Part shown: positions 4,184-35,714 of the stretch, in pieces
How the letters are laid out: each line of letters begins with the position of its first letter
Numbering within the stretch: the stretch's first letter is position 1
Origin: Escherichia coli
GTDB lineage: Bacteria > Pseudomonadota > Gammaproteobacteria > Enterobacterales > Enterobacteriaceae
Strand: one strand, 5' to 3'
Assembly: GCF_030013595.1 (NCBI RefSeq)
Contig: NZ_CP122768.1
Length of the DNA stretch: 64,000 bases
Notes under the pieces: generated by a model
The model's database searches: none
Told to the model about the DNA's origin: nothing
The model's input: the letters and a program-made list of their open reading frames with translations, nothing else
Translations under genes and position numbers: made by a program

Positions 4184-4300
4184 CTGATGCCCTCACCCCG
4201 GCCCTCTCCCACAGGGAGAGGGAGAAAACCTGCGCCATATTCACCTCCGCGCTCAATCGGTCCCCTCGCCCCTTTGGGGAGAGGGTTAGGGTGAGGGGCA
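4184..4300. repeat. Inverted pair of GC-rich palindromic intergenic repeats (core CCCTCACCC..CCCTCTCCC-N4-GGGAGAGGG)
   Basis: Two units in opposite orientation at 4189-4224 and 4262-4298; the same family recurs 5 more times in the window. Confidence 0.85.
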
Positions 4301-4311
4301 AAGCGCGCCCC

Positions 4312-4611
4312 TCATTTCCCCTTCGGCGACAACTGCTTCACAATCATCGCCGCGATCCCAATCCCGTGCTGCTGCGCCAGGGTGTTACACAACTCATCGT
4401 CATAAAACCCCTGCATCATGCGCACCGAATCGCTGTTAAACGGGTTATCTTTCGAATCGAACAACTCGTTGGTTTTGCGCATCTCTTTGAGCATATTGCG
4501 TAAAAAAATCGCCTCAAACTGTTCGGCGGCCTGCCTGATATCATTGGCCTGAACCTTCGGCCCCATTAACGCATCGCTGCCGTCAATCCCGCCGCTGCCG
4601 TTAACTTTCAT
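4312..4611 (-). CDS. lfgJ: FlgJ rod-binding domain protein (no muramidase domain)
   Basis: 99 aa; motif FEAIFLRNMLKEMRKT typical of the FlgJ N-terminal rod-binding domain; lies between lfgI and lfgK. Confidence 0.8.
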   Translation of the reverse strand: MKVNGSGGIDGSDALMGPKVQANDIRQAAEQFEAIFLRNMLKEMRKTNELFDSKDNPFNSDSVRMMQGFYDDELCNTLAQQHGIGIAAMIVKQLSPKGK

Positions 4612-5726
4612 CAGATCACCTCCAGGTCGGCATCCAGCGCGCCCGCTTCATGCAGCGCCTGCAAAATCGACATAATGTCGTCCGGCGTCGCACCTAAACT
4701 GTTCAACGCATTAACCAACGTTTTCAGGCTGCTCGACTCCGGCAAACTTACCACGCCCGGACGGGCATGATTCACCGCAATATTGCTCTGCGGCGTTACC
4801 GCCGTGCGCCCGCCCGCAAAGGCATTCGGCTGGCTGACGTTGCTGGTTTCGTTAATCGAAACGGTCAAACTACCGTGCGACACCGCCGCCGCGTGCAGCG
4901 CAACGCCATCGCCCATCACCACCGTGCCGGTGCGCGAGTTAAACACCACGCGGGCGCGGATTTTCTCCGCCTGAACCTGCACATCGTCCAGTTGCGACAT
5001 AAACGCCACCCGCGCGCCGGGGCTGGTAGGCGCACGCACGGTAACGTTGGTGGAACTCTGCGCGGTGGCAATGCCGCCAAACGAGGCATTAATCGCCGCC
5101 GCAATGTTGTTGGCATCTTTAAACGACGGGCGTTTCAGGTTGAGGGTGATGGTATCGCCCATCTGAAAATCGCTGGGGATCTCGCGCTCCACCGTTGCGC
5201 CGTTAGGAATTAACCCGGCGGTTGGTGTATTAACCGTTACGCTCGAGCCGCTGGCCCCGGTGGCATTCATCCCACCCACCACCACGCTGCCCTGCGCCAG
5301 GGCATACACTTCGCCATCCGCGCCGTGCAACTGCGTAAGCAATAAAGTGCCGCCGCGAATACTTTTGGCATCTCCAATCGACGAAACGGTGACATCAATA
5401 GTCTGCCCGCGCGAGTACATCGGCGGCAATGTGGCGCTCACCGCCACCGCGGCGACGTTTTTCACCTTCGGGTCGATTTTATTCGGCAGCTGCACACCGA
5501 ACTGGCGCAGCATATTGGTGATGGTCTGGTTGGTGAATTTGACCTGATTTTTATCGCCGGTGCCGTCGAGGCCGACCACCAGGCTGTAGCCGACCAGTTG
5601 GTTTTCGCGCACACCCTGTACGTTGACCAGCGACTCCAGCGATTGCGCCAGCGCCACACCGGGCAGCGCCAGGCTTACGGCTACGACCACCGTCTTTATC
5701 CAGTTTTGCATTGCACTCTCCGGCAT
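4611..5726 (-). CDS. lfgI: Flagellar P-ring protein FlgI
   Basis: 371 aa with signal peptide; FlgI family by sequence and position. Confidence 0.9.
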
Positions 5727-6391
5727 TAGATCGGGAACAGAGGATGGTTAAACAGCCGCGTCAGCCAGCCTGCGGCGTTGGCGTCGCTTAACGCGCCGCG
5801 TCCGGCATAGGAAATGCGGGCGTCGGCGATCCGCTGGGAGGAAACAGAGTTGTCGTTCTGGATATCGTCGGCGCGTACCAGGCCGCTCAAGCGGATGTAC
5901 TCATCGCCCTGGTTGAGGGTCAGCCATTTTTCGCCGCGAATTTCCAGGATGCCGTTGGGCTGCACCGCATGGACGGAAACGGTGATCTCCCCGCGCAGGC
6001 TGTTCTGCTGCTGGGAAGTGGCGCTGCCGTCAAAGTCGCGGTTGGCATCGATGGAGCCGGAAAGCTTATCTTTGGTGTGACCAAAAATGGTCGGTGCGCC
6101 GATGTCGACGGTGTTGTTTTTACCGAAGTTGGTTTTCGCCTGTTTGCTCGACTGGGTGGATTCTTCGAGGATCACCGTCAGGATATCGCCCACGCGGTAA
6201 GCCCGCCTGTCGGCGGTGAGCGACCAGTTGTAGCCAGTTTCAAACACGCCCCCGGCACGCCCGTCTGCCGGAGGCGGCGCTTCGGTTTTCGGTGGCGCAA
6301 AGTATGCGTCGTCTTTTTTGACCAGAATGGCCTGCGATTCACACCCGCTAAGCAGGGGAAGCAGCGCCACCAGCCAGAAATAATTTTTCAC
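5726..6391 (-). CDS. lfgH: Flagellar L-ring lipoprotein FlgH
   Basis: 221 aa; lipoprotein signal LLPLLSGC; FlgH family. Confidence 0.9.
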
Positions 6392-6459
6392 GTTCTGCCT
6401 GTTTAGTGTTGCAGGCCACGGGGTGGCCGTTTTTTTGGTGGGTGCGGAGCCGATTTGTT

Positions 6460-33073: not shown

Positions 33074-33832
33074 CTACAAAATCGTCTCTTCCGTCAAAAT
33101 CCTGCGCGCGCCTAAAAAATGATCCTGCCAGAAAGGTTCAGCTAACCGACTTACCCGAATGGTTTCCCCGGTGCGCGGCGACTCGATAAACTGACCGTCT
33201 CCCAGATACACGCCCATATGATCGGCAATCTCGCGGCTGTGGATATGGAAAAACAGCAAATCTCCCCGGCGCAGGTCGTTGTTCGCCACAATCGTTGCCC
33301 GATGGTAGTGATACATCTCATTGGCCGTGCGCGGGAGCTTCGCCTCGAGGATCTTGTTGTAGGCATAAAAAACCAACCCGCTACAGTCGAAGCCTTGATC
33401 GGGCCGCGTGCCGCCCCAGACGTAAGGCTTGCCAAGCTGCTGCTCCAGGCGGTGAATCGCCACTTCGGTGATGTTGTGTAGATGGTCGCTGCTTAAGAAA
33501 TGGTTGTTCTCCGCCAGCGCCTGCCAGCGTCTGTCACTTGCCTTGAGCGGCGCAGGAAACCATTCTGGATGCTGTTTTATCTGTTCGCGGTTGTGCTGGC
33601 GCAGCGCCTTTCTGCTTTCGGCATTGCCTTCCACAATATAGCTGGCCTGTTTTTTCAGATGGGTTTGGTACTGTTTTAATAAACGCGCACGGTTTTGCAT
33701 CCGCTGGCGGGCGGCGTAGCTGAAAGAGATATGTGATGTGGTGGCGCTGGCGAGTAAAGGGAGCAAAACGCATAACGAAAACACGCCTGGATGCAGAAAT
33801 CTGCCGAGCAAGAACGAAGACATGAAGGACAT
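33074..33832 (-). CDS. yafL: NlpC/P60-family lipoprotein endopeptidase YafL
   Basis: 252 aa; FDCSGLV catalytic Cys motif; conserved K-12 neighbour. Confidence 0.85.
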   Translation of the reverse strand: MSFMSSFLLGRFLHPGVFSLCVLLPLLASATTSHISFSYAARQRMQNRARLLKQYQTHLKKQASYIVEGNAESRKALRQHNREQIKQHPEWFPAPLKASDRRWQALAENNHFLSSDHLHNITEVAIHRLEQQLGKPYVWGGTRPDQGFDCSGLVFYAYNKILEAKLPRTANEMYHYHRATIVANNDLRRGDLLFFHIHSREIADHMGVYLGDGQFIESPRTGETIRVSRLAEPFWQDHFLGARRILTEETIL

Positions 33833-34123
33833 AAACCGGCTGAATGAAGGTGAGAATTTTAAAAGACCAGAGGAGTAAACGGGATTATTAATTGCTTATT
33901 TGCATATTACTATTGAGGTTTCATAATCTTAGGAAATAAATGATACATGCGCTTTTCGGACTATTGAAAACTGCCCCTGTGCTAAATTTGTAAACCCTGC
34001 GCCGACAGGCTTGCGTAAAACTCTTTTGGTGATAATGTGAGCCTTCCCAATCCAGACTATTCCGATTTGGGATCCATTTTGCCGTCCTGGCGTGTGTAAC
34101 CGTTTTATCAAGGAATAAGCAGT

Positions 34124-34864
34124 ATGCGTAAAATCGCATTAATTCTTGCGATGTTGTTGATCCCGTGCGTTTCGTTTGCCGGTTTGCTGGGCAGCAGTAG
34201 CTCGACCACGCCAGTGAGCAAAGAGTATAAGCAGCAGTTGATGGGATCCCCTGTCTACATCCAGATCTTCAAGGAAGAACGTACGCTCGATCTCTACGTC
34301 AAAATGGGCGAGCAATATCAACTGCTCGACAGCTATAAAATCTGTAAATATTCCGGCGGCTTGGGGCCAAAACAGCGTCAGGGCGATTTCAAAAGCCCGG
34401 AAGGGTTTTATAGCGTCCAGCGTAATCAGTTAAAACCAGACAGCCGTTACTACAAAGCGATTAATATTGGATTCCCCAATGCCTATGACCGTGCGCATGG
34501 TTATGAAGGGAAATATCTGATGATCCACGGCGATTGTGTTTCCATCGGCTGCTACGCGATGACCAATCAGGGTATTGATGAGATCTTCCAGTTCGTTACT
34601 GGTGCGCTGGTTTTTGGTCAGCCGAGCGTGCAAGTGAGTATTTACCCGTTCCGCATGACCGACGCCAATATGAAGCGCCATAAATATTCCAACTTTAAGG
34701 ACTTCTGGGAGCAGCTGAAGCCAGGTTACGACTACTTTGAGCAAACCCGTAAGCCACCGACCGTTTCTGTGGTCAATGGTCGTTACGTGGTCAGCAAGCC
34801 GTTAAGCCACGAAGTTGTGCAGCCACAGCTGGCATCAAACTACACGCTCCCCGAGGCAAAATAA
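34124..34864 (+). CDS. yafK: L,D-transpeptidase-family periplasmic protein YafK
   Basis: 246 aa with signal peptide; YkuD-type HGDCVSIGC motif. Confidence 0.85.
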
Positions 34865-35602
34865 GCGCCATTCGCCTGGCATAATCTTTTGCCAGGTTTC
34901 ATTGCCCGTCAGCGGCTGTGTTGCAATCACCGTGACCACATCATTCGGTGTGGTCTGCGAGCTGAAGTCGATTTCCACATCCTGATCCAGCAACGTTGCC
35001 ACACCAAACGGCGCACGACGGGTGATCCAGTGTAAATTAGTCGAGCAATACGCCATTACATAGCGCCCGTCAGAAAGCAGCATGTTGAAAACGCCCTTCT
35101 GCCGCAGTTCATCCGCCAGTGAGGCGATATATTTAAACACTGCCGCCATGTTGCCCGGTGTGCGCGGGTAACGCTGCGTTAATTTATGCAGGAGCCAGCA
35201 GAAGGCTTTTTCGCTGTCGGTTTCACCGACCGGGCGGAAGTTGCCGGTTTCCAGTGATTTATAGCCCGTCAGTTGCCCATTATGGGCATAAGTCCAGTTA
35301 CGCCCCCATAACTCGCGGGTAAACGGGTGAGTATTTTCCAGCGCCACCTCGCCCCGATTCGCCTGGCGAATATGAGCCACCACCGAACAGGATTTTATCG
35401 GGTAGTCCTGGACAAGTTTGGCGATGGGGGAATTAAAGCTGGGTTGCGGATCTTTAAATGTGCGACAGCCTTTACCTTCGTAAAAGGTAATGCCCCAGCC
35501 ATCTTTATGTGGCCCGGTTCCACCACCACGCTGTACAAGTCCGGTGAAACTAAAGCAGATATCGGTAGGGACGTTGGCGCTCATCCCGAGCAATTCGCAC
35601 AT
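34835..35602 (-). CDS. yafJ: Class II glutamine amidotransferase YafJ
   Basis: Starts MCELLGM (N-terminal nucleophile Cys2); 3' end overlaps yafK convergently. Confidence 0.85.
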
Positions 35603-35678
35603 GGGTAACCTCCACAACAGCGGGAGCACATGGCCCCCGGCGAAGATTGATTAAAAAGTACAAAGGTTCAGGCTGTTA

Positions 35679-35714
35679 CCCTCACCCCGGCCCTCTCCCT
35701 GAAAGGGAGAGGGA
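35679..35714. repeat. GC-rich palindromic intergenic repeat, single unit
   Basis: ccctcaccccggccctctccctgaaagggagaggg between yafJ and gmhA. Confidence 0.8.

Follow-up and report, generated by a model that had tools for sequence, protein, structure and literature searches.

The 64-kb window analysed here, that is, the whole stretch of 64,000 nucleotides from Escherichia coli contig NZ_CP122768.1, carries a GC-rich palindromic repeat at six intergenic places, and these six loci are, judged by their sequence, copies of the E. coli BoxC repeat, which is also called the PIT (potential intrastrand triplex) element or TM_ECO. Membership of the family is established by sequence identity to published K-12 units. 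It is highly probable that this assignment is correct and, jointly with it, that the copies are non-coding, dispensable and structure-prone elements. A sequence-only reading of the same window had proposed that one repeat family occurs at the six loci, which is correct, and had been unable to name it; the name, which was supplied by a match to the literature, answers that question and removes the interpretation of the repeats as terminators or operon markers. The family itself is already known and well documented, since the 23 TM_ECO motifs of K-12 MG1655 are the BoxC repeats of the early 1990s and the PIT elements of Hoyne and Maher (Holder et al., 2015; PMC4666352), and an independent survey includes BoxC among the known stem-loop families of E. 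coli (PMC2267715).

Over 24 kb, the window is 99.8% identical to E. coli strain HCP5S3_I2, and the gene calls used here are those of the RefSeq annotation of that genome. The region consists of the Flag-2 (lateral flagella) locus and, beyond it, yafL, dpaA, yafJ, lpcA/gmhA and fadE. All six loci lie between annotated coding sequences, as had been claimed. They are listed below, with the strand of the G-rich sequence in parentheses.

Copy 1, 4177-4310: inverted doublet of unit B at 4189-4222 (-) and unit A-mm at 4263-4298 (+) with a 40-nt spacer; between flgK and flgJ
Copy 2, 6446-6581: inverted doublet of unit A-mm at 6460-6495 (-) and unit B at 6536-6569 (+); between flgH and flgG, both genes on the - strand
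Copy 3, 16716-16852: inverted doublet of unit A-mm at 16730-16765 (-) and unit B at 16807-16840 (+); between the lysine-N-methylase and glycosyltransferase genes, both on the + strand, in Flag-2 variable region 1
Copy 4, 26520-26579: lone unit A-mm at 26529-26565 (-) with family flanks; in the middle of the 372-nt divergent control region of lafK and fliM
Copy 5, 32997-33036: collapsed doublet, no strand assigned, hairpin at 33008-33030, third block missing; in the convergent flhA-yafL spacer
Copy 6, 35663-35720: lone unit B at 35678-35713 (-) with family flanks; between yafJ and gmhA (lpcA), both genes on the - strand, outside Flag-2

The motif CCCTCNCCC has 26 matches on the two strands of the window, compared with 1.57 ± 1.14 (maximum 5) in dinucleotide-preserving shuffles of both strands, and all 26 are confined to the six loci, which align with one another and were grouped into one family by the repeat finder that was used for pairwise comparison of the copies. 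Units were identified with a regular-expression pattern and a triad script. Each consists of CCCTC(T/G)CCC, a loop of 3-6 nt (1-6 nt were allowed by the membership rule), GGGAGAGGG, a 3-nt loop and GGGTGAGGG, with about 12 nt of conserved flank on each side, so that the constant four-nucleotide hairpin loop of the sequence-only reading has to be abandoned. Eight complete three-block units pass this test; the ninth element, at 33008-33030, has the hairpin only, and the copy that had been placed at 33006-33030 is thus a hairpin without a third block and not a full unit. The second loop is TTA in type A and CCG or TCG in type B, four units belong to each type, and each of the three doublets joins one A and one B unit in inverted orientation, as in K-12.

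Six of the eight complete units match K-12 exactly, including both units of copies 1 and 2. The sequence at 6536-6569 and the reverse complement of 4189-4222 are, letter for letter, the 34-nt type B sequence of K-12; 4263-4298 and the reverse complements of 6460-6495 and 16730-16765 are identical to its 36-nt type A-mm sequence; and 16807-16840 equals entry 20 in Table 1 of Holder et al. (PMC4666352). Every complete unit has 8-9 of nine Watson-Crick pairs between blocks 1 and 2 and nine of nine allowed purine-motif triads between blocks 2 and 3, and the blocks appear compatible with a class II purine-motif intrastrand triplex (G·G, A·A and T·A triads). Of 5426 complete E. coli genomes, 5425 carry the family, and the median number of places is 17, in agreement with the roughly 15-25 units per E. 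coli genome that characterise BoxC. An Rfam scan of the window at gathering thresholds gave rRNA and tRNA matches only and nothing at the BoxC copies.

The family is distinct from REP, as had been proposed, because the REP core GCCGGATGCGGCG occurs in the window solely at 7417 and 9443 and never inside the six loci; the REP (PU) consensus GCCGGATGCGGCG...CTTATCCGGCCTAC has no match at any of the six, and their alignment contains no REP motif. The REP elements that had been noted elsewhere in the window were confirmed at about 7417-7447 and 9443-9521. These two elements, a REP and a BIME, carry 3-nt and 2-nt deletions in REP loops relative to the 99.8%-identical strain (GTGAAC--- and GCGGCG--AACGCC), and single-base homopolymer differences from that strain are found in or near two BoxC-bearing spacers (the 16803 and 26670 regions); these deletions and differences could have arisen by slippage or from sequencing error.

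The attribution of spurious PLTLTLSPKGRGD open reading frames (ORFs) to the repeats was also correct, as translation of the units shows, and copy 3 additionally yields a false N-terminal extension of 225 nt in the glycosyltransferase ORF (start at 16664 versus the true ATG at 16889). For annotation, BoxC units should be masked as sources of such peptides and extensions.

Doublet arrangement and genomic position

The doublets are 122-145 bp long, and their complementary arms measure about 45 nt. Conserved sequence continues for about 12-14 nt beyond the blocks, and the composites, which had been located properly and delimited too narrowly, extend over roughly 4177-4310, 6446-6581 and 16716-16852. 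The near-identity ascribed to those at 6460-6570 and 16730-16840 holds for the arms (92-100%) and fails for the 81-nt stretch that includes the spacer (86%). The copy reported at 4184-4300 is real, but it is the same composite in inverted form: copy 1 is opposite in orientation to doublets 2 and 3, with 4177-4298 complementary to 6460-6581 at 89% over 122 nt, and the repeat finder also records it as inverted relative to the element at 16720-16859.

When the window copies are aligned with the two K-12 doublets that were checked by sequence, lldD-trmL and hrpB-mrcB, two half-elements can be recognized. Half-element alpha is composed of GCGCGC-N4, an inverted unit A and GACCGATCGAGCAC, and half-element beta of GGTTTTCT, unit B and ATCAGCGCGCAC. 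The window doublets consist of alpha, about 12 nt and beta, with the third blocks outside and a spacer of about 40 nt between the units. The K-12 lldD-trmL doublet has the same order, whereas the hrpB-mrcB doublet consists of beta followed by alpha, with the third blocks inside, so that the two orders are related by circular permutation (B-ATCAGCGCGCAC-A'-GACCGATCGAGCAC versus A'-GACCGATCGAGCAC..GGTTTTCT-B-ATCAGCGCGCAC). One of the five K-12 doublets has the third-blocks-outside orientation (Table 1 in PMC4666352). No description of circular permutation of BoxC doublets was found in the literature that was consulted.

The single copies correspond to the same parts, copy 4 to alpha alone and copy 6 to beta alone. 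Copy 5 has the A-side flank CTCGGACTGTC on the left, a type A hairpin, and the B-side flank AGAAAAAC on the right. From this layout we infer that it is the exact remnant expected from a deletion between the two direct GGGAGAGGG repeats of an hrpB-mrcB-type doublet, in line with the "palindrome effect" of Holder et al. (PMC4666352).

Folding of the units, which the sequence-only reading had proposed as a check, gave stable predicted RNA hairpins for the doublets, from -76 to -86 kcal/mol with z from -4 to -8.5 (copy 1, -86.4 kcal/mol and z -7.2; copy 2, -76.5 and -4.0; copy 3, -84.9 and -8.5). As single-stranded DNA, a unit is predicted to pair block 1 with block 2 and to leave the third block free. 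The G-rich strand of K-12 sequences identical to window units forms a triplex in vitro, as determined by circular dichroism and nuclear magnetic resonance (PMC4666352).

Five of the six copies begin 1-31 nt past the stop codon of the upstream gene. Copy 1, which is flanked by flgK and a flgJ-like rod-binding gene, both on the - strand, has the base of its stem 1 nt past the flgJ stop codon (4312-4314), and copy 4 is separated from the lafK start by 154 nt and from the fliM start by about 170-180 nt. In every characterised flagellar system, flgG and flgH lie inside the flgB-J rod operon, so the location of copy 2 between them is not consistent with the earlier proposal that the repeats mark operon boundaries; copies 1, 3 and 6 are likewise located between co-directional genes and copy 4 between divergent ones, and from gene orientations only copy 5, between convergent genes, is unambiguously at the ends of transcription units.

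Strain turnover, clustering and wider distribution

Eight repeat-bearing spacers were compared between the window and 11 other E. coli genomes by means of 200-nt flanking anchors. The contents of the six BoxC slots in these 12 strains are as follows.

Copy 1 slot: BoxC doublet in 6 of 12; two-REP BIME in 6 of 12
Copy 2 slot: BoxC doublet in 8 of 12; REP-type or other sequence in 4 of 12
Copy 3 slot: doublet in 7 of 12 and a mutated copy in 1 of 12; 43-nt spacer in 4 of 12
Copy 4 slot: unit A in 5 of 12; two-REP BIME in 7 of 12
Copy 5 slot: collapsed hairpin in 3 of 12; rayT plus REPs in 6 of 12, hicAB in 2 of 12, not recovered in 1 of 12
Copy 6 slot (9 strains recovered): unit B in 3, and in 1 more with a 6-bp deletion inside the hairpin; BIME in 4

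The copies are dispensable and exchangeable cassettes, because BoxC, REP or BIME, a short spacer and other inserts alternate at the same slots, and this dispensability argues against a required punctuation function. REP-type or other sequence at the copy 2 slot is found in strains that include NRZ14408, DCE7, NC101, SCU-113 and FORC_031; the copy 3 slot of DCE7 contains an ISEc13 transposase gene and one intact BoxC unit; and mutated or partly deleted BoxC copies are present in JNEC-KY177 and Ec-U4-19. At the copy 6 slot, the BIME is found in K-12-like strains and a single REP in O157, two strains have lost 6 bp within the hairpin, and in NRZ14408 and JNE25-005 the slot could not be extracted because IS1397, which inserts into REP and BIME sequences, lies beside it. 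The REP slots flgG-flgF and flgE-flgD are equally variable and have "empty" alleles of 22-26 nt. When a genome was counted as carrying a window-like allele at 80% or more coverage of the flanked query (331 nt for copy 2), the window-like copy 2 allele was found in 193 genomes, compared with about 1270 that are positive for Flag-2 (of 5426 complete genomes, 1272 have cluster 1), and the window-type copy 5 spacer was found in 126 of 5426.

This turnover between strains is in line with published work in which TM_ECO loci were more variable than controls (PMC4666352), and the earlier suggestion that the repeats are recombination targets fits loosely with that local variability and with the replacement of alleles between strains. 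For strain typing, Flag-2 spacers should be treated as hypervariable.

Several further observations concern these spacers. The spacer of doublet 2 also contains a good terminator-like hairpin at 6414-6435 on the + strand (GGCCACGGGGTGGCC followed by T7), antisense to the flg genes, which is kept in the inspected strains with the BoxC allele and is missing from the 82-nt NRZ14408 and 202-nt SCU-113 alleles. The flhA-yafL spacer of the window (32977-33073) is 97 nt long and carries the collapsed BoxC hairpin, with rayT, the REP-associated transposase gene known as yafM in K-12, absent from this, its usual position; in the six strains that have rayT here, the gene is flanked by 5-9 REPs and not by BoxC. 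Loci that bear rayT tend to have REP at the copy 1, 4 and 6 slots and fewer BoxC units. A causal tie between the presence of rayT and REP occupancy was considered and rejected; the pattern is better attributed to lineage or linkage, because DCE7, which has no rayT, carries REP alleles and because the slots are linked within 9 kb.

The BoxC copies are strongly clustered. The 99.8%-identical genome has 12 BoxC places in 5.27 Mb, six of which are in the 31.5 kb studied here, or 0.6% of the chromosome, and at the median of 17 places per genome about 0.2 would be expected in a 64-kb window. Clustering of BoxC in Flag-2 is not mentioned in the literature that was consulted: the terms "flagell" and "lateral" do not occur in PMC4666352, and the Flag-2 comparative paper does not contain "intergenic" and uses "repeat" solely for the direct repeats at the lfhA-lafU deletion. 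The clustering may reflect relaxed constraint in a locus that often decays, because pseudogenes are annotated in it in several strains.

Other variable features of the locus were also recorded. Between flgA and flgM (12027-14744), genes for a DNA cytosine methyltransferase and, convergent to it, a type II restriction endonuclease are inserted in Flag-2; 6 of the 12 strains have this pair, whereas 042, A22, FORC_031, NC101, Z1323HEC0462 and JNE25-005 lack it. The flagellin lysine-N-methylase gene (15779-16709) is apparently frameshifted, its ORF stopping 100 nt short at 16609; in the near-identical genome the gene is annotated as a pseudogene. At the end of the window, the Rfam scan identified tRNA genes, presumably for tRNA-Asp, and an rRNA operon: two identical tRNA genes (55014-55087 and 63236-63309) lie inside a 91-nt repeat that is 93% identical, and 5S rRNA followed by the 3' end of 23S rRNA is located at 63364-64000 on the - strand. 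Judged by position, these features (55014-64000) are probably aspV, aspU and rrnH.

Occurrence of the motif in over 260 genomes was known before (Holder et al., 2015; PMC4666352). In a taxonomic scan with the exact pattern and one genome per species, at least 120 loci in at least eight organisms were found, with three metagenome-assembled genomes (MAGs) supplying most of the matches listed. The organisms among these matches comprise an Archangium MAG (Myxococcota), Candidatus Contendobacter, a Pseudomonas isolate, and MAGs of Verrucomicrobia, Elusimicrobia, Hyphomicrobiales, a deltaproteobacterial lineage and unclassified bacteria (including Pseudomonadota). The scan establishes the presence of the BoxC core across phyla and not its distribution. 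The first 65 of the 74 listed loci of the Archangium MAG contain at least 67 units. Cores outside E. coli are nearly identical to those of E. coli, and that of Contendobacter shares the G.A mismatch and the TTA loop of type A. Among the matches listed, the 33-nt three-block core is present at high copy in distant phyla (the Archangium, GL140 and Verrucomicrobia MAGs), and its copies in MAG GL140 form two subfamilies that differ in their conserved flanks, which extend for about 25 nt to either side; there, the core may sit within larger repeat elements.

Proposed explanation and its alternatives

In the model that we favour, BoxC elements would persist only where insertion is tolerated, that is, between genes and mostly a short way past a stop codon, and the copies would be turned over by gain, decay and homologous replacement, which would make the content of each slot dependent on the strain; exchange between strains would probably occur by homologous recombination of the flanking genes. 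When transiently single-stranded, a BoxC element could adopt a hairpin, cruciform or intrastrand triplex structure, and this folding would promote slippage deletions between internal direct or inverted repeats, of which the collapsed copy 5 and the 6-bp hairpin deletions at the copy 6 slot are possible examples. A transcribed doublet would form an imperfect RNA hairpin of roughly 50-60 bp without a U-tract; because the U-tract is lacking, any effect on expression would be REP-like, as an exonuclease barrier or a ribosome obstacle beside the stop codon, and not one of intrinsic termination or operon punctuation.

Several points weigh against this model. Footprinting with dimethyl sulphate detected no triplex in vivo (PMC4666352). 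Alignments of filled and unfilled alleles contain no clean empty site or target-site duplication, the flanks being replaced wholesale, so that the gain of BoxC by insertion can only be deduced from alleles that differ by replacement of the whole spacer. On our analysis, an RNA-level role at this locus, including the stabilisation of mRNA, is possible. The near-identical 33-nt core with the same G.A mismatch recurs in distant phyla among the matches listed, which hints at constraint beyond a purely neutral or selfish model, and the concentration in Flag-2 of about half of the copies of the genome is not accounted for by the model.

It is conceivable, if on balance doubtful, that BoxC acts at the RNA level in the manner of REP, its stem-loop blocking 3'-to-5' exonucleases or hindering the terminating ribosome and thereby tuning expression ratios within operons. 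The predicted RNA hairpins are very stable, and REP or BIME occupies identical slots in other strains; the siting of five copies 1-31 nt past a stop codon, with the stem of copy 1 only 1 nt away, is typical of REP and therefore makes a REP-like effect on mRNA decay or translation termination imaginable. Such roles at the mRNA level are said to have been documented for REP and BIME sequences by Newbury and colleagues in 1987 and by Liang, Rudd and Deutscher in 2015. However, copy 4 is probably outside any mRNA 3' region, and alleles with a spacer of only 22-43 nt exist at three slots, where an RNA function is therefore not required. In addition, no consistent position of the motif relative to ORFs or operons was found in K-12 (Holder et al., 2015; PMC4666352).

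The view that BoxC doublets are non-autonomous elements like miniature inverted-repeat transposable elements (MITEs) or REPINs, moved in trans by a transposase (possibly of the HUH/Y1 type) that uses single-stranded hairpin DNA, appears unlikely. The inverted arms of about 45 nt and the size of 122-145 bp (below 200 bp) are those of such elements. Paralogous arms are near-identical and spacers and loops divergent, most type A copies carry a fixed G.A mismatch of the kind expected from the spread of a master copy, presence and absence differ by slot, and the window-type and hrpB-mrcB-type doublets are circular permutations. BoxC also shares slots with REP and BIME, on which RayT acts. Nevertheless, neither a target-site duplication nor a clean empty site was recovered in the compared alleles, genomes carry few copies and their number varies little, and we know of no cognate transposase for BoxC. 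No recurrent ORF lies beside the units at the at least 120 loci from other phyla: ORFs of 90 aa or more within 400 nt of units at these non-E. coli loci formed three two-member clusters of unrelated proteins, no exhaustive search having been made in E. coli. Holder et al. (PMC4666352) found no association with transposons, phages or plasmids. The plasmid matches that were inspected (80% or more coverage) proved to be Flag-2 fragments and were rejected as evidence of mobility, since the two best single-piece full-length matches are such fragments deposited as plasmids and several others are chromosome-sized.

That BoxC elements are hotspots of recombination or instability, adaptive through the variation that they generate, as speculated by Holder et al. 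(PMC4666352), is quite unlikely. All BoxC slots in the locus differ between strains, short deletions within hairpins as well as one collapsed doublet were observed, and the published variability of TM_ECO loci exceeds that of controls. The REP slots flgG-flgF and flgE-flgD are just as polymorphic, however, and variability may therefore be a trait of permissive spacers or of repeats generally; moreover, an association with variability does not establish cause.

A further version of the mobility hypothesis, in which the doublets are REPIN-like mobile DNA and the cross-phylum core reflects recognition by a conserved enzyme, is a long shot. It draws on the permuted doublets of about 125 nt, which would fit a circular single-strand intermediate, on the competition of BoxC with REP and BIME for stop-proximal slots, and on the possession by an ancestral Flag-2 island of about half of the copies of the strain. 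If it were true, the near-identity of the 33-nt core in Myxococcota, Verrucomicrobia and Alphaproteobacteria would be explained by enzyme recognition.

Finally, it is extremely improbable that BoxC units are Rho-independent terminators or operon punctuation, as had also been suggested: they are GC-rich hairpins in spacers, five of the six are just past a stop codon and copy 5 separates convergent genes, but no T-run follows any unit on either strand, hence no U-tract on the transcribed one, copy 2 lies within the flgB-J rod operon and copy 4 between divergent promoters, and REP or a short spacer fills the same slots in other strains. In a test for intrinsic terminators (a GC-rich stem with a direct U-run), no site coincides with any unit, and the sole overlap is a weak terminator-like call in the spacer of doublet 3 (16779-16798, with GTTTTCT), a stem of seven pairs of which three are G-C; the 36 terminator-like calls in the window, compared with 22.9 ± 4.4 in shuffles, represent little enrichment. 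As summarized in PMC4666352, the reporter assays of Hoyne and Maher (2002) detected neither promoter nor terminator activity, and RNA polymerase was not affected.

Comparison with known systems

The present analysis adds some minor new points on a known family, namely that about half of the BoxC sites of this strain lie in 32 kb, that BoxC and REP alternate at the same slots, and that the doublets occur in two circularly permuted arrangements. No work on BoxC function after 2015 was found in the literature, and slot alternation, clustering in Flag-2 and permuted doublets could provide a handle on the spread and decay of this 30-year-old orphan repeat family.

Of the systems that resemble BoxC, intrinsic terminators share with it a GC-rich stem-loop downstream of genes, but have the U-tract that BoxC lacks. 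ERIC/IRU and other enterobacterial MITE-like repeats resemble the doublet in being intergenic, long imperfect palindromes of about 125 bp that are often co-transcribed, whereas ERIC/IRU has no sequence similarity to BoxC. REP, BIME and REPIN sequences, of which REPINs are mobilised by RayT, are likewise short GC-rich extragenic palindromes, single or in inverted doublets, and usually located just past stop codons; REP and BIME are polymorphic between strains as BoxC is and fill the identical Flag-2 spacers in other strains, but their sequence is unrelated, and the third, mirror-repeat block is a feature of BoxC. Finally, the BoxC, PIT and TM_ECO elements of the literature (Bergler, 1992; Bachellier et al.; Hoyne et al., 2000, 2002; PMC4666352) have in common with the window copies the A and B classes, A+B doublets, intergenic siting, the hairpin with its third-strand block, and variability between strains. 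Nothing essential distinguishes the copies described here from these known elements, and their density is far above the genome average.

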